From Flavobacteriales bacterium (GTDB lineage Bacteria; Bacteroidota; Bacteroidia; Flavobacteriales_D; Sanyastnellaceae): a DNA stretch of 29,373 nt. Position numbers and translations under genes: made by a program. The stretch is taken from assembly GCA_011524845.1 (NCBI GenBank), contig WTJL01000169.1, forward strand, positions 1 to 29,373, given 5' to 3'. This document shows positions 12,453-21,726 of the stretch, piece by piece. The stretch's first letter is position 1, and every line of letters starts with the position of its first letter. The notes under the pieces were generated by a model. The model was not told the DNA's origin and ran no database searches. It saw only the letters and a list, made by a program, of their open reading frames with translations.

Positions 12453-12526
12453 TGCCCCATGGTGTAATGGTAACACACCGGTTTTTGGTACCGTTTTTCC
12501 AGGTTCGAGTCCTGGTGGGGCAACCA
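12453..12526 (+). tRNA. tRNA-Gln (anticodon UUG)
   Basis: Acceptor TGCCCCA/TGGGGCA with U1-A72, D-arm GTGT/ACAC, anticodon loop TTTTGGT, T-arm CCAGG-TTCGAGT-CCTGG, encoded CCA. Confidence 0.96.
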
Positions 12527-16497: not shown

Positions 16498-17334
16498 TTA
16501 CGTGTTGGACACCCCGCGGTGGTCCACGACGTGCACATCTCTTTGCGGGAAAGGAACGACGATGCCATGTTCGCGGAACTTGGCGTCGATGGCCGTGCGA
16601 ACCCGGCTCTGAATGCCCATGCGGTCCCACGGATCGTCCAGCCATCCCATCACGCTGAAGTCCAGGGAAGACTCGCCGAAGTCTTGGAAAAAGACGGCCG
16701 GCTGTGGGTCCTTTCGGACTTCAGGCTGCAAGGCCATCGCTTCAGACAGCACCCGGGTGACCAAGGCCACGTCGCTTCCATAGGCGACCCCCACATTGAC
16801 CCGAATCCGCATGGCGCCGTCGCCCTGACTCAGGTTGACGACCGCCTCTCCCGCCACTTTGGAATTGGGCAGCACGATCAGTTCGCCTGCCACAGTCACC
16901 ACCCGTGTGGACCTCAAATCGATGCGCTCCACCCGAACCAGCTCACCGTCCACTTCCAAGACGTTGCCCACGGCCACGCCTCCTTCAAACAAAAGGACAA
17001 ACCCGCTGATCACGTCGTTGAAAAAGCCCTGCAATCCGATTCCCACCCCCACAAGGAGTGCCGCAGAACCAGCCCAAAGCGCGGTCAAGTCCACCCCCAA
17101 CACCGACAGCACGCCCATGGCGGCCAGGGTCCACACCACCGAGGTGAGCAGACGACGGATGATGAATTGCTTGCCCTCGTCCATGGACGACACCCGGCGG
17201 GCCCTGCGCAAGCCTCTTCGAACCAAGGCCAACCCAATGCGGGCCAACACAACCACCGCCGTGGCTTCCACCAGTTCGAGGACAGAGACACTGTGGTGCC
17301 CCAAAGTGAAAGTGTGGTTCAACAGTTCATTCAC
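16498..17334 (-). CDS. mscS: Small-conductance mechanosensitive channel (MscS family)
   Basis: TM helices then GIGLQGFFNDVISG, VGNVLEVD, IDLRSTRV, LPNSKV, VGVAYGSD, IVVPFPQRDVH. Start moved to GTG 17334 because the listed upstream extension overlaps dnaG. Confidence 0.9.
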   Translation of the reverse strand: MNELLNHTFTLGHHSVSVLELVEATAVVVLARIGLALVRRGLRRARRVSSMDEGKQFIIRRLLTSVVWTLAAMGVLSVLGVDLTALWAGSAALLVGVGIGLQGFFNDVISGFVLLFEGGVAVGNVLEVDGELVRVERIDLRSTRVVTVAGELIVLPNSKVAGEAVVNLSQGDGAMRIRVNVGVAYGSDVALVTRVLSEAMALQPEVRKDPQPAVFFQDFGESSLDFSVMGWLDDPWDRMGIQSRVRTAIDAKFREHGIVVPFPQRDVHVVDHRGVSNT

Positions 17335-17362
17335 GGGACAAGGGCTGAAGGGTTCAACACGT

Positions 17363-19405
17363 TCAAGGCAAAATGACCGTCCCAAAATGGGCCAAAGTCG
17401 CTTGAATCTGCCGGTCGAGGTCGACTTTTTGGGCCAAGAGGTCGCGCTCATCTTCAAGGGCGAGTTCTCCGGCTTCCAGCTTGGCAGACACCTCTCGCGA
17501 CGCCTCACGGAGGTCGGTCAGGTGCATCCGACGAAGGGAATCCTCGAGCAAAGCAAGCAATTGGTCGCGCTCCACCACGGGGTAAATCTTGTGCCGCTGC
17601 GACCAATTGGGGCTGAGCACGTGCTGTTGGACCAAGGCCCCCGCCACTTTTTGCTGGACGCCCATGTCCTGATCGTTGGCCAGTTGGTCCGCCGTGAGGA
17701 TGCGCTCGTGGTCCAATTCGTCTGAGAACCTTTTCACCACAGCCTGGTTCATGGGCTCCTGGATGTCGATGCCCTCCTCTTCGATTCGGTGGATGACCAA
17801 CTCAGCGAAGGGAACTTCGAGGGTGGTCGGCTCTGCACCTTCTTCGCCTTCCAGGGTGACCGACACCACCTCCGTCGCGTATTCAAGCAAAGCCCGAACG
17901 AGGTCGTTCTCGATGACCGCCCGCTCTGAAATGCGCGGGGTGAGGTCTTCTTGCGGAGGCGGCAGCTGGTCCACCGGCACGTTGCCGTAGGCCGCCCCAG
18001 GGTCACCGGGGAAGCCTGAGCCTTGCGGTGGGGGCATGGTTCCACCGGGTTGGGAGCCGTAAGGACTGGACTTTGCCGCGCGCTTGGCCGCGGCTTTGGA
18101 TTGCTCGTGAAGGACTTTGGCGACCTCAGTGCCGAGGACGTTCTCGTCCATCTTGAGCTGGGTCGAGGACGACTGAAGGTAGACCGACCGTTGAATGGCG
18201 TCGGGAATGGCCGCGATCGACGTCACCACCGACCGAACCATTTCGGCGCGCTTCATGGGGTCGTTGCCCGCCTCGTCAGAAAGCAACTTCGTTTTGAACT
18301 GCAGGAAATCCTGCGCGTCGTCGTGGATGGCGCTGTGCAGGGCGTCGCTGCCCACCTTCTTGGCGTACGTGTCGGGATCGTCGCCGTCGGGAAGCAGGAC
18401 CACTTTGACGGCCATGCCTTCCGCGAGCAGCATATCGATGCCGCGAAGCGATGCCCGAATCCCTGCCGCGTCTCCATCAAAAATGACGGTGACGTTCTTC
18501 GTGTAGCGACGGATGAGGTGGATTTGGCCAGTGGTGAGCGCGGTGCCGCTTGACGACACCACATTCTTCACCCCCGCCTGATGCATGGCCATCACGTCGG
18601 TGTACCCCTCCACAAGGAAGCACCTCTCCTCCTTGACGATGTCAGGCTTGGCAAGGTGCATGCCGTACAGCACCTTCGACTTGTTGTAGAGGACGCTTTC
18701 AGGCGAGTTGAAGTACTTGGCGACCTTCTTGTCTGTGGTCAATGTGCGGCCCCCAAACCCAATGACACGGCCCGTCACGTCCCGAATCGGGAACATCACC
18801 CGGCCTTTGAAAAAGTCCCACAGCGAGCCGTCGTCGCGTTGCTTGCACAGCCCGGCTTCCACCAATTTCTCCGCAGTGTATCCGGCTTCCTGGGCGGCCG
18901 TGGCCATGGCGTCCCATGAATCGGGGCTGTAGCCAATCAGGAACGTGTCGAGCACGTCGTCGCGAAAGCCACGTTCCACGAAGTAGCTGCGTCCAATGGC
19001 CTTGCCGGCCTCGGTGGTGCGCATTTGGTCCATGAACCACTTGGACGCCCAAGCGACCAAGTTGCCCAGTCCCTCCTTGGCCGTGGCGGCCGCGATTTCC
19101 TCGGGGGTGCGCTCTTTTTCCTGAACCTCGATGTTGTACCGACGCGCCAGCATCCGCAGCGCCTCAGGGTAGCTCGCCTTCTCCAGCTCCATCAGGAACG
19201 TCACCACACTTCCTCCCTTGCCGCTCGAGAAACACTTGAAGATGCCTTTGGCCGGCAGCACGTAAAACGACGGGGTCTTCTCGTTCGTGAACGGGCTCAG
19301 GCCACGCATTGAACTGCCCGATTTTTTCAATTCCACGTAGTCGCCAATCACCTCTTCGATGACGGCGGCATTCATGATTTGATCGACGGTTTCCTGAGGA
19401 ATCAT
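17363..19405 (-). CDS. dnaG: DNA primase
   Basis: GLSPFTNEKTPSF...FKCFSSG zinc-binding domain (Bacteroidota variant), RVMFPI, KYFNSPES, TOPRIM VEGYTDV and FDGDAAG, DPD. Start at ATG 19405. Confidence 0.97.
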   Translation of the reverse strand: MIPQETVDQIMNAAVIEEVIGDYVELKKSGSSMRGLSPFTNEKTPSFYVLPAKGIFKCFSSGKGGSVVTFLMELEKASYPEALRMLARRYNIEVQEKERTPEEIAAATAKEGLGNLVAWASKWFMDQMRTTEAGKAIGRSYFVERGFRDDVLDTFLIGYSPDSWDAMATAAQEAGYTAEKLVEAGLCKQRDDGSLWDFFKGRVMFPIRDVTGRVIGFGGRTLTTDKKVAKYFNSPESVLYNKSKVLYGMHLAKPDIVKEERCFLVEGYTDVMAMHQAGVKNVVSSSGTALTTGQIHLIRRYTKNVTVIFDGDAAGIRASLRGIDMLLAEGMAVKVVLLPDGDDPDTYAKKVGSDALHSAIHDDAQDFLQFKTKLLSDEAGNDPMKRAEMVRSVVTSIAAIPDAIQRSVYLQSSSTQLKMDENVLGTEVAKVLHEQSKAAAKRAAKSSPYGSQPGGTMPPPQGSGFPGDPGAAYGNVPVDQLPPPQEDLTPRISERAVIENDLVRALLEYATEVVSVTLEGEEGAEPTTLEVPFAELVIHRIEEEGIDIQEPMNQAVVKRFSDELDHERILTADQLANDQDMGVQQKVAGALVQQHVLSPNWSQRHKIYPVVERDQLLALLEDSLRRMHLTDLREASREVSAKLEAGELALEDERDLLAQKVDLDRQIQATLAHFGTVILP

Positions 19406-19433
19406 GGGGTGTGGTCGGCGCGTGGCGGGCCTA

Positions 19434-19441
19434 CGAAGATA
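19434..19441 (-). promoter_or_regulatory. -7 box variant (TATCTTCG) for dnaG
   Basis: One mismatch to consensus, 28 nt before the dnaG ATG; same variant as upstream of yicC. Confidence 0.6.
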
Positions 19442-19464
19442 CCCAAGATGGCGAGGATGCCATG

Positions 19465-19491
19465 AAAAACGGCACCCCATCAGGAGTGCCG
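19465..19491 (-). terminator. Intrinsic terminator upstream of the dnaG promoter
   Basis: CGGCACTCC-tgat-GGGGTGCCG followed by T5 on the minus strand. Confidence 0.8.
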
Positions 19492-19609
19492 CTCTCGGCG
19501 AAACGATCCTTCGCCAACCTGCTGCGCCACGGTGCGTTCACCACGGCGGCTTGAAACCTGAAGTTCCTGACGGCCTCGCTCCGTGGAGCTCGGACCGAGA
19601 AACTGAATC
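19465..19609 (-). ncRNA. Candidate ~145-nt structured non-coding RNA, family unassigned
   Basis: Bounded by an exact -7 box (19615-19622) and a terminator; three further hairpins with G-U pairs only on the minus strand; no credible ORF. Confidence 0.6.
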
Positions 19610-19614
19610 CAGGG

Positions 19615-19622
19615 CAAACCTA
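19615..19622 (-). promoter_or_regulatory. -7 box (TAGGTTTG) driving the candidate ncRNA
   Basis: Exact TAnnTTTG match with no start codon downstream before the terminator. Confidence 0.65.
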
Positions 19623-19731
19623 CTTTTTCCCTCCTCCGGCCACGTCAAGCCTTTGTGAAGGGGTTGTGAATGTTTGTTGACGCTTGGGTTGCCTCCACCG
19701 TCACTGGGGGTGGAAATCACGCAAGTCGTGG

Positions 19732-19739
19732 CATCTTTG
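19732..19739 (+). promoter_or_regulatory. -7 box variant (CATCTTTG), 5 nt before the sensor kinase ATG
   Basis: One mismatch to consensus. Confidence 0.55.
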
Positions 19740-19744
19740 GTTCC

Positions 19745-21031
19745 ATGAAAGGCCGGCTCATCCCCGTGTTGGTGGGGTCCATGACTGCAGCGATGCTCGT
19801 CATTGTGGCCGTGCAAGTCAGCTGGCTGGAGTCTTCGGCCAAACTCCGAAAGGAAGTCTTCGACCAAAGCGTCGAGCAGAGCCTGCAACTGGTCGCCAAC
19901 TGGTTGACGGCCACCCATCTGGACAAGCCTGAGGAGGTCGACCCCCAAGTGTTGCGCACGGACGAATTGGCCCCTGAAGAGCGCCTCATCGTGCGGCGAA
20001 TGGAAGCCCTTCCCATGGATTCGTTGTTGATGCTGGCGTTCAAGGAACAGGGCATCGAGGCGGAGCCAGTGTTTGGGGCGTACGACCGGTACGGGCAACC
20101 CGTCTACCTCCTCGAAGCGTCCGAGCCCTTCAGCGAAGACCTTCTCGCTCGCGGCTATTCGGTGGCGCTGGGAACCCTCCAGTTCCGGGTGCACTTCCCC
20201 AAGCTGGGCCGCTACCTCATCGGCCAAATGCTCGGTGCCTTCGCCCTGAGCGTGATGATGATGTTGCTGATTGCCGGGGGATTTGGGTACACGCTGTTTG
20301 CGATTCAGCGCACCAAACGCCTCGACCGCCTCCAGCGAGACCTGGTCAACAACCTCACGCACGAGCTCAAAACGCCCATCTCCAGCATTGGGCTGGCGAG
20401 CGAGGCGCTGTCTGACCCAGCCTTCGACGACGAGGCTCGCAAACACTACCTGGGCCTGATTCGCGAAGAGAACAAGCGTCTCGGAGTGCTCGTGGAAAAC
20501 GTGCTTCGTGCGAGCCTCTCTGAAACCGGCGCCATGCGGCTGTACGTCCAGCCCCTCAACCTGCACGACCTCATCAAAACAGTGGTGAAGAACATGGCCA
20601 TGCAATTCCACAAGCAGGGGGTGAAGGTGGATTTGGCCTTGGACGCGAGCAATCCCAACCTGGTGGCGGACCGCATCCACTTGACCAACATCCTTTTCAA
20701 CTTGATCGACAACGCGGTCAAATATTCAGGGGAAGACCCGCACATTGTCATTCGCACGGCCCAAACCCCTGACGGAGTGTCACTCCACATCCAAGACAAT
20801 GGGGTCGGCATCGCCAAAGAACATCTTGGCAAGGTCTTTGAAAGGCTCTATCGTGTCCCCACCGGCAACGTCCACGACGTGAAGGGGTTTGGCCTGGGCC
20901 TGAGCTACGTGAAAAACGTGGTCGAAGGCCACGGCGGATCCGTCCACATCGCAAGCCGCGTCGGCGAGGGCACAACATTGAAGCTCATGCTTCCGTTTGA
21001 ATGCCAACCTGACAAGACACACACCTCATGA
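19745..21031 (+). CDS. rprX: Membrane sensor histidine kinase (RprX-like)
   Basis: Two TM helices, H-box NNLTHELKTP, N-box NLIDNAVKYS, DNGVGI, F-box VFERLYRV, GFGLGLS. Start moved to ATG 19745. Symbol inferred from the partner regulator. Confidence 0.9.
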   Translation: MKGRLIPVLVGSMTAAMLVIVAVQVSWLESSAKLRKEVFDQSVEQSLQLVANWLTATHLDKPEEVDPQVLRTDELAPEERLIVRRMEALPMDSLLMLAFKEQGIEAEPVFGAYDRYGQPVYLLEASEPFSEDLLARGYSVALGTLQFRVHFPKLGRYLIGQMLGAFALSVMMMLLIAGGFGYTLFAIQRTKRLDRLQRDLVNNLTHELKTPISSIGLASEALSDPAFDDEARKHYLGLIREENKRLGVLVENVLRASLSETGAMRLYVQPLNLHDLIKTVVKNMAMQFHKQGVKVDLALDASNPNLVADRIHLTNILFNLIDNAVKYSGEDPHIVIRTAQTPDGVSLHIQDNGVGIAKEHLGKVFERLYRVPTGNVHDVKGFGLGLSYVKNVVEGHGGSVHIASRVGEGTTLKLMLPFECQPDKTHTS

Positions 21032-21726
21032 AAGACATCCGCATCCTCCTCTGTGAAGACGATCCCAGCTTGGGACGCTTGCTCTCCGATTACCTCAAGG
21101 CCAAAGGGTTCGAGGTGACTTGGGCGCAAGACGGCGTGGAAGGACTCAAGGCGTTTCACCGCGACACGTACGACTTCATCGTGCTCGACGTGATGATGCC
21201 CCGCAAGGACGGGTTCCAGGTGGCGGAAGAGATTCGGTTGGAGAGCCGGAGCATCCCCATTTTGTTCCTCACAGCGCGGTCGACCAAAGACGACACGCTC
21301 GAAGGATTCAAAGTCGGTGCAGACGACTACATGACCAAGCCCTTCAGCATGGAGGAACTCGTGTTGCGCATCCAAGCCATTTTGCGGCGCTCCTCGGTGT
21401 TGCCCGAAGCTGGCGAAGAGGTGACCGACTTCACCGTGGGCCTGTACACCTACGACTACACGACGCAGTCTCTGACCCTCAACGGCGAGTCCCAACGCCT
21501 CACCACCAAAGAGAACGAACTGCTCTTCATGCTCTGCAAGCACAAGAACGCCCTGCTGGAGCGGGCGCATGCGTTGCGGAACATTTGGGGGGACGCCAAC
21601 TACTTCAACGGACGAAGCATGGACGTCTACATCGCCAAGCTCCGGAAGCACCTCAAAGGCGACGACCGCATCGAGATTCTGAACGTCCACGGCAAGGGCT
21701 TCAAGCTCGTGGCGCCAACAGACTGA
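21028..21726 (+). CDS. rprY: OmpR-family response regulator (RprY-like)
   Basis: ILLCEDD, LDVMMPRKDG, ILFLTA, GADDYMTKPFSMEEL, LTTKENELL, NYFNGRSMDVYIAKLRKHL; ATGA overlap with the kinase stop. Confidence 0.93.
   Translation: MKDIRILLCEDDPSLGRLLSDYLKAKGFEVTWAQDGVEGLKAFHRDTYDFIVLDVMMPRKDGFQVAEEIRLESRSIPILFLTARSTKDDTLEGFKVGADDYMTKPFSMEELVLRIQAILRRSSVLPEAGEEVTDFTVGLYTYDYTTQSLTLNGESQRLTTKENELLFMLCKHKNALLERAHALRNIWGDANYFNGRSMDVYIAKLRKHLKGDDRIEILNVHGKGFKLVAPTD

Follow-up and report, generated by a model that had tools for sequence, protein, structure and literature searches.

A predicted regulator-controlled small RNA gene between dnaG and an RprX/RprY-like operon in a genus of Flavobacteriales

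The 29,373-nt contig WTJL01000169.1, the whole of which we call the window, comes from a metagenome-assembled genome of a Flavobacteriales bacterium (1.84 Mb, 70% complete, 59% G+C) whose near relatives, from marine, Caspian and stream samples, are labelled uncultured Flavobacteriales or Bacteroidota. In a divergent intergenic region of the window, with the primase gene dnaG on one side and an RprX/RprY-like two-component operon on the other, lies what is very probably a real small RNA (sRNA) gene. Our reading of the locus, to which we give a probability of roughly 0.65, is that this is an independent sRNA gene, most likely regulator-controlled and trans-acting. A preliminary description had placed a structured RNA element between dnaG and the RprX/RprY-like pair, and all of its elements were found where it had put them, on the minus strand.

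The mechanism that we propose runs as follows. The sRNA gene (19610-19465, minus strand, ~146 nt) would be transcribed from its own Bacteroidota sigma-A promoter and closed by a strong intrinsic terminator. An OmpR-family response regulator would activate it through heptads that stand in phase upstream of the promoter; the simplest candidate for this activator, an RprY-like protein, is encoded 1.4 kb away, and the RNA would then be a non-coding output of the RprX/RprY-like system. The sRNA would act in trans, base-pairing through an exposed and conserved CAGGUU core, and an RRM-type chaperone might assist this pairing.

Promoter, fold and representation in RNA libraries

The gene and its parts, all on the minus strand, are these:

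19465..19610, minus strand: predicted sRNA of ~146 nt, with a predicted transcription start site near 19610 and a predicted 3' end in the U run 19469-19465
19615..19642, minus strand: predicted sRNA promoter, consisting of a 20-nt spacer (19642-19623) and the -7 box TAGGTTTG (19622-19615)
19562..19604, minus strand: hairpin 1, ~33-47 nt long among species, its basal stem kept through compensatory changes
19551..19561, minus strand: single-stranded linker 1, of high unpaired probability, containing the first CAGGU (19560-19556), which is nearly invariant in the genus
19521..19550, minus strand: hairpin 2, with the apex G-AACG-C at 19539-19534; GAACGC is invariant in 22 sequences
19515..19524, minus strand: second CAGGU(U) core, with CAGGU at 19521-19517 within GCAGCAGGUU, reaching from the last part of hairpin 2 into the short linker that leads to hairpin 3
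19495..19517, minus strand: hairpin 3, free in sequence with its pairing kept; a hairpin folds here in every homologue
19465..19494, minus strand: intrinsic terminator, with the stem GCGGCACUCC/GGGGUGCCGU extended by A/G-U pairs, the loop UGAU and a U5 tail (19469-19465)

The exact promoter box that had been read at 19615-19622 is present as TAGGTTTG at 19622-19615 of the minus strand. In Flavobacterium the sigma-A -7 box sits at -12 to -5 (PMC9723704); we placed the transcription start site by this rule, and the geometry of the sRNA box agrees with that report. Across 22 aligned intergenic regions the box reads TAGG, TAAG, TACG or TAGT followed by TTTG, so that TA and TTTG are kept and the two nucleotides between them vary, while the spacer that separates the heptads from the box is constant in length (20-21 nt) and variable in sequence. 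Such a constant TA and TTTG around a variable middle is the signature of a working Bacteroidota sigma-A box, and on this pattern we call the element a predicted promoter. A scan for sigma-70 promoters returned no site, as expected for this phylum.

The ViennaRNA minimum free energy (MFE) of 19612-19465 is -71.5 kcal/mol, against -55.2 ± 4.0 kcal/mol in dinucleotide shuffles (z = -4.08, with 0 of 200 shuffles as stable); the plus strand folds to only -54.1 kcal/mol (z = -2.0). The MFE structure of 19610-19465 consists of helices at 19610-19553 (apical loop CACG), 19550-19521 (12 pairs, loop AACG), 19517-19495 (9 pairs) and 19494-19467 (12 pairs), and four separate hairpins are seen in the MFE, in the centroid and in all homologues. 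This is the layout that the preliminary description had drawn, with stems slightly shorter than those of the MFE. Its argument that the G-U pairs fix the orientation also holds, with the correction that the MFE has 10 such pairs where six had been counted. In the second core, CAGG(T) of which is invariant in the genus, the unpaired probability reaches ~0.8-0.9 at 19521-19518 and is lower on either side.

At the 3' end, the U-tailed terminator previously placed at 19465-19491 was found, with a GC-rich stem of 10-12 bp, a U5 tail and a stability of -22.9 kcal/mol for the hairpin alone. A simple terminator scan had missed it because the stem takes in part of the U run. Its reverse complement has no U tail, and it therefore terminates minus-strand transcription only; moreover, given that no minus-strand gene lies upstream and that the region is divergent, it can only end a transcript begun inside that intergenic region. 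In one homologous locus (genome G002) the 5' arm of the terminator has been replaced, and a hairpin and U6 are still present.

The absence of a credible open reading frame (ORF) from the transcript, noted earlier, extends to its relatives: in 18 of the 22 homologues there is no ATG-started ORF of at least 10 codons, and no ORF is shared among them. Length differences among the homologues are not multiples of three. By these criteria the RNA is non-coding.

Of the words sampled from 19455-19625, at least 73% occur in each of five marine metatranscriptome runs from two studies. The RNA is covered by contigs of four of these runs: X21 over 19486-19639 (identical to the window), X20 over 19435-19582, X1 over 19433-19583, and X5 as a 91%-identical relative over 19098-19590. 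What these contigs show is only that the locus is represented in RNA libraries. In X20 and X21 the flanks of the sRNA have little or no contig cover, and the 4.3-kb stretch is not among the content of these runs; given that the runs were selected for containing the RNA and that coverage holes prove nothing, we draw no inference on relative abundance from this. Two sets of contig ends were considered as RNA ends and set aside, namely those at 19433-19435 (two runs of one study), which belong to records of read length, and those at 19583-19590 (three runs), which coincide with the hypervariable hairpin 1, where assemblies branch.

Conservation, covariation and relation to dnaG

A blastn search with the intergenic region gave matches in 21 of the 24 other genomes of the genus, and tblastn showed the divergent dnaG/kinase synteny in all loci with both genes. 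A covariance model, R1, was built from 20 sequences (alignment A1). It finds exactly one strong copy in 22 of the 25 genus genomes (E = 1e-10 to 1e-29), always at the dnaG/kinase locus; in the 31 further genera of the family that were sampled, it has no credible match. Weak R1 matches outside the genus (E = 4e-4 to 1e-2), all distant from dnaG and the kinase gene, were rejected as chance.

Covariation was scored on the model-based alignment A2. Standard pairs fill 79.8% of its cells, compared with 67.6 ± 1.0% in column shuffles, and the covariation score is 0.402, compared with 0.206 when shuffled (0 of 500 reach the observed value) and 0.10-0.15 with partners slid by 1-3 columns. A2 had been fitted to the structure, and because of the relatedness of its sequences the shuffle counts should not be read as probabilities. 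The elements differ in how they contribute:

Hairpin 1: 58% of cells paired; its length varies and it aligns poorly
Hairpin 2: 95% of cells paired, with 8 of 9 pairs changed on both sides
Hairpin 3: 74% of cells paired, with 8 of 8 pairs changed on both sides
Terminator: 94% of cells paired (22 sequences), with few double-sided changes and a conserved sequence

Folding the sequences singly puts a hairpin at the position of hairpin 1 in every homologue, on basal stems that differ in sequence (AGUUUCU/AGGAACU, GUUCUGG/UCAGAAAC, GUCUUGA/UCAAGA and AGAACCG/CGGUUCU, according to species). The preliminary description had named structural conservation with covariation in relatives as a check on the element, and this is what the 22 of 25 genus genomes provide.

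These results also bear on whether an RNA is made at all. The sequence could act as DNA only, with regulator sites and an insulating hairpin between divergent promoters and no stable RNA product; the upstream heptads clearly have a role at the DNA level, and the RNA-library contigs could derive from DNA. However, pairing in hairpins 2 and 3 and in the terminator is preserved by compensatory changes, and the G-U pairs work on one strand only; both observations point to selection on an RNA, and a conserved -7 box at fixed spacing followed by a U-tailed terminator makes a complete transcription unit. We regard the DNA-only explanation as highly improbable.

No known family accommodates the RNA. 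Rfam 15 at gathering thresholds finds in the whole window only a tRNA (12453-12523), and at E <= 10 there is no match on 19300-19800, riboswitch classes included, in keeping with the earlier statement that no family could be assigned. The sRNA gene is thus absent from Rfam; it is previously uncatalogued and restricted to a few lineages.

A 6S-like RNA had been named as the known model to exclude. The RNA resembles 6S-Flavo (RF01685) and 6S (RF00013) in being a small structured RNA with its own promoter in Bacteroidota, and a divergent 6S-like RNA that binds RNA polymerase would fit with its presence in RNA libraries (words of the stretch in five metatranscriptome runs, contigs over it in four) and with the fact that neither Rfam model is matched in five genus genomes, in which the housekeeping 6S was not located. 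On the other side, the RNA folds into four separate hairpins and not into one long rod with a central bubble, its 3' end is a self-contained terminator, its promoter looks regulated, and Rfam gives no match even at E <= 10. Nor is the distribution that of a housekeeping RNA, being patchy in the genus, where the RNA is lost in genomes G005 and G008, and in the family, most genera of which do not have it, searches in 30 other genera giving no copy. Architecture and distribution leave the 6S-like reading next to no likelihood. The five genomes in question are G000, G007, G006, G020 and G019, four of which are 97-98% complete, and the housekeeping 6S RNA of the lineage, if present, escapes current models. 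RF01685 matched none of 81 genomes of the order and none of the control genomes, a result that is uninformative for want of a positive control.

A remodelled RNA is found in a sister genus (29 genomes, DnaG ~52% identical), 12 genomes of which carry an RNA of ~107 nt at the same place; a variant of 123 nt is present in one more genome, and the inserts of the others are short or unrelated. Upstream there are three heptads, a 20-nt spacer and a -7 box (TACGTTTG in most), and the RNA itself begins with a small 5' hairpin and hairpin 1, continues through a single-stranded core into hairpin 2 and ends in a terminator whose loop is CAACGG. The core GGUUUUAGGUU is invariant, preceded by CA in most, and is collinear with the core in the genus of the window. 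The sister-genus RNA is supported by covariation of its own, with 97.5% of cells paired and nine pairs compensatory (0 of 500 shuffles).

Neither genus model detects the RNA of the other genus significantly. The best weak cross-model match does fall on the other genus's RNA, on the right strand, at 11 of 12 and ~13 of 22 loci, and such matches may partly reflect the common terminator. Four features are collinear between the two genera: the design of the promoter, an unpaired CAGGUU(U)..GG core just ahead of the penultimate hairpin, a linker rich in A, and the terminator. Matches of model R2 in three other genera were rejected as a different element. In three other genera of the family (L222:1501-1594 in G112, L223:1501-1585 in G047 and L224:1501-1580 in G046) a conserved A/U-rich block, GGTTAATTAAT..AGAATTTGTTTAGGTAATTTAG, precedes a terminator; the block follows closely on a conserved coding region, distant from dnaG, and may be an sRNA that is either derived from a 3' untranslated region or stand-alone.

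The relation of the RNA to dnaG, which starts at ATG 19405 (minus strand), turns on one further element:

19434..19441, minus strand: dnaG-proximal -7-type box TATCTTCG, 28 nt upstream of the dnaG ATG and outside the sRNA

That dnaG has a -7 box of its own after the terminator was already part of the preliminary description, and the box at 19441-19434 proves to be conserved: the block CTTGG(G/A)TATCTTCG is kept in nearly all of the 22 aligned regions, one of which has CTTCGGTATCTTCG. The terminator ends 23 nt before this box. Within the dnaG-proximal block (19431-19450, minus strand) we note two overlapping box-like units, CATCTTGG and TATCTTCG, 9 bp apart, which may be tandem start sites.

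Two genomes of the genus have lost the RNA. In G008 a clean deletion runs from the second heptad to just before the CTTGG(G/A)TATCTTCG block, and G005 has a decayed sRNA remnant; both retain the block, dnaG and the kinase gene. The flanking sequences place these two genomes in two different RNA-bearing clades, and the losses are thus independent. In other genera with the same synteny the intergenic region can be only 100-200 nt long, with an TACATTTG box before dnaG and no RNA. Given that the RNA can be lost with the dnaG box kept, and that other genera have short, RNA-free regions, the RNA is not an obligatory primase leader, and we read these comparisons as showing an independent and dispensable sRNA gene. 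Occasional read-through into dnaG may occur.

The preliminary description had left two readings side by side, an independent sRNA and an attenuating dnaG leader, and it is the former that promoter, covariation and losses favour. As a cis-acting leader or attenuator, the RNA would allow a regulated upstream promoter to feed primase, with the terminator setting the degree of read-through. It does lie directly upstream of dnaG on the same strand, its terminator 23 nt before the dnaG box, and RNA-library contigs span the terminator (X1 19433-19583, X20 19435-19582 and, for the relative, X5 19098-19590), though a contig over two genes does not prove a single transcript. There is a precedent in the E. 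coli rpsU-dnaG-rpoD operon, in which terminator T1, placed before dnaG, attenuates the operon transcript on its way into this gene. The likeness lies in an intrinsic terminator directly upstream of the primase gene; here, by contrast, there is a separate promoter box after the terminator, and what lies upstream is a dispensable unit, the non-coding RNA. Further points against a leader are that two species without the RNA retain the box and dnaG, that many genomes of the same synteny have no such element, that the terminator is strong (-22.9 kcal/mol with U5 here, U7-U10 in most of the sister genus), that there is no Rfam riboswitch match, and that no conserved segment able to pair with the 5' arm of the terminator was seen when alignments A1 and A2 were inspected by eye, no dedicated computation being made. 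We consider a dnaG leader quite unlikely.

The heptad array and its probable regulator

Upstream of the independent sRNA gene that we favour, and towards the kinase gene, lie the following elements:

19643..19681, minus strand: four tandem heptads of type TTnACA, a candidate OmpR/PhoB-family response-regulator array with a spacing of 10/11/11 bp: GTCAACA (19681-19675), ATTCACA (19671-19665), CTTCACA (19660-19654) and CTTGACG (19649-19643)
19732..19747, plus strand: start of the RprX-like kinase gene, with the box CATCTTTG at 19732-19739, a 5-nt gap and ATG at 19745

The array was no part of the preliminary description, and neither was the sister-genus RNA. Tandem direct repeats one helical turn apart and abutting the -35 region are a hallmark of OmpR/PhoB-family regulators. 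Here the last heptad occupies roughly positions -39 to -33 of the sRNA promoter, and in both genera 20 nt separate the end of the last heptad from the -7 box. Of the four heptads, the first two do not vary in any of the 22 aligned regions, and the third and fourth keep the type kTsACA. As in-phase TTnACA heptads abut the promoter, an OmpR-family regulator most likely activates its transcription, and the neighbouring RprY-like protein is the one that we infer to bind the heptads and activate the RNA. For control of the sRNA by a response regulator as such, we put the chances at about even.

The two kinase-nearest heptads persist where the RNA is absent and the proximal ones come and go with it; the former probably serve the kinase promoter, in autoregulation. 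The motif TTCACA-N5-TTCACA occurs at four sites in genome G000, against none for a reversed control and ~0.09 expected per genome from base composition, and at 12 sites over five genus genomes, against one reversed-control match in total. Some of these sites have orthologous counterparts in other species and precede genes. In G019, for example, the motif stands 22 nt before a -7 box and a leaderless start, the protein weakly matching the low-molecular-weight phosphatase family, and the ortholog of this gene in G020 has the motif 32 nt before a -7 box. The further sites form a candidate regulon of the same regulator. Those in G000 are C62:8876-8892, C162:7870-7886 and C12:6073-6089, others are at L145, L150, L151 and L152, and the genes downstream encode an alpha/beta hydrolase, a protein with a weak low-molecular-weight phosphatase domain, and hypothetical proteins.

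The kinase has HisKA and HATPase_c domains (Pfam). We place its start at 19745 rather than at 19670, tblastn matches in most relatives beginning at residue 25/26 of the longer ORF, and an mRNA beginning there would seem to be leaderless or near-leaderless. In the sister genus TACCTTCG lies 8 nt upstream of the kinase ATG. The response-regulator gene (21028-21726) is of OmpR type, and its product scores 325 bits against the NCBIfam RprY model, below the cut-off of 370. On the other side of dnaG, away from the sRNA, a gene for an MscS-type mechanosensitive channel (16498-17508, minus strand; Pfam MS_channel_2nd and MS_channel_3rd) adjoins it, and the MscS-type ORF as listed overlaps the region of the dnaG stop codon.

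Mode of action and relation to known systems

Of the parts of the RNA, the CAGGUU core is collinear in both genera, and we take it to be the likeliest functional element, with a putative role as seed. Both genera encode RRM-domain proteins, and RbpB is an RRM-type RNA chaperone of Bacteroides (PMC11697453). By analogy with OmrA/OmrB, MicF and Qrr1, the RNA probably acts in trans; base-pairing through CAGGUU in particular is a tentative proposal, which we hold to be somewhat short of an even chance.

The same motifs admit of another use, as an RNA that binds and sequesters protein, the repeated exposed CAGGU and the AACG-capped hairpin titrating an RNA-binding protein. Two CAGGU copies are indeed placed within or next to the linkers that join the hairpins, and they show almost no variation, like the G-AACG-C apex; no base-pairing target is detectable in our searches; and RRM-type proteins are encoded in these genomes. 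Yet there are only two copies of the motif where known sponges carry many, the first copy is missing or has variation around it in the RNA of the window and in two sister-genus RNAs, and no candidate protein was identified. The AACG loop, for its part, caps unrelated terminators in the family too and may be a generic stable loop. We judge sequestration unlikely. An AACG tetraloop closed by C-G or G-C is seen in hairpin 2 here (19534-19539), in hairpin 1 of relatives and in the sister-genus terminator loop, and also in the unrelated terminators at L222 and L224; it may serve no specific recognition and simply be a stable loop typical of the lineage.

Several results weigh against the reading of the locus as a regulator-controlled, trans-acting sRNA gene. 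On the side of the gene itself, the RNA-library contigs carry no strand and may include DNA, and they overrun both predicted ends by ~30 nt (to 19639 on the 5' side and to 19433-19435 on the 3' side); the alignment scored for covariation was fitted to the model, and only 58% of hairpin 1 is paired in it. On the side of the regulator, the two upstream heptads also survive in the absence of the RNA and may serve the kinase promoter only, the -7 box is 23 nt away from the TTG of the last heptad, a longer spacing than is usual for a -33 element, and the RprY literature searched gives no binding motif. On the side of the targets, a search in G000 with three RNA segments did no better on ~9,400 candidate start regions than on internal control windows, the best duplex energies being -26.7 in start regions versus -25.0 in controls and -32.2 versus -32.0. 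The best match falls on a 390-residue protein without a Pfam family (C132:7473); its N-terminal region lacks conservation in relatives. Across 22 genomes, z is near 0 for duplexes of the full-length RNA with the 5' regions of dnaG and the kinase gene.

In the sister genus, the exact complement of the invariant 11-mer occurs, over five genomes, only at the RNA gene and at one other site, giving no perfect target. This 11-mer, AACCTAAAACC (the complement of the sister-genus core), is found in G106, G129, G171, G062 and G164 almost only at the RNA gene, compared with 8-12 occurrences per genome for a reversed control; its scarcity may be depletion or mere k-mer bias.

A lineage-restricted sRNA is in itself an ordinary discovery, and the kind of bacterial regulator is already familiar. 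What the locus offers is the pairing of an sRNA with a probable dedicated regulator (RprX/RprY-like) and a defined candidate operator array, an arrangement that is testable. The heptads supply a candidate DNA motif for RprY-type regulators, and 34 natural variants in two genera set constrained parts, namely the CAGGUU core, the AACG-capped hairpin and the terminator, apart from free ones. To our knowledge, what is known of sRNA biology in Bacteroidota comes almost entirely from gut Bacteroides and a small number of Flavobacterium strains, and we know of nothing for uncultured small-genome marine lineages. The literature search returned nothing that links rprX to an sRNA.

A wider proposal, which we put forward as doubtful, is that the RNA serves the RprX/RprY system, widespread in Bacteroidota, as its non-coding arm and represents the first sRNA module driven by a response regulator to be described in marine Bacteroidota. 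This module of extra in-phase regulator half-sites, -7 box, RNA and terminator would have been repeatedly inserted, remodelled and lost beside the kinase promoter, and its two genus-specific architectures would have in common only the promoter design, the single-stranded CAGGUU core and the terminator. As the module lies 23 nt upstream of the primase promoter, its induction might modulate dnaG transcription by occlusion or read-through; if true, this would tie an envelope or ion-stress signal to replication.

Among sRNAs of Bacteroidota, GibS and FopS of Bacteroides thetaiotaomicron (PMC7366714, PMC11697453) differ from the RNA described here, which has no Rfam match and carries three hairpins before its terminator. 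Genomic context and presumed regulator are different as well.

A comparable arrangement is that of Qrr1 in Vibrio; the two RNAs have no sequence similarity. Qrr1 is divergent from the luxO/luxU operon, and LuxO, an NtrC-type regulator, activates it with sigma-54 from shared intergenic sites; it is Hfq-dependent and belongs to a set of 4-5 paralogues. In both cases a short, multi-hairpin RNA with an intrinsic terminator is transcribed divergently beside a regulator operon. The RNA here, in contrast, has a sigma-A -7 promoter, OmpR-type repeats and a single copy, and the phylum Bacteroidota, as far as we know, is without Hfq.

In promoter layout the RNA resembles OmrA/OmrB and MicF of E. coli, which are OmpR-driven, Hfq-dependent, trans-acting sRNAs with known targets and which are not adjacent to ompR-envZ. 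Like them it ends in a terminator and has tandem direct repeats just upstream of its promoter, here as putative regulator-binding sites. It differs in adjoining the regulator operon, and both the binding of a regulator and the action on targets are putative here. OmrA/OmrB and MicF form a non-coding arm of an envelope-sensing two-component system, and it is this role that we presume for the RNA beside the RprX/RprY-like operon.

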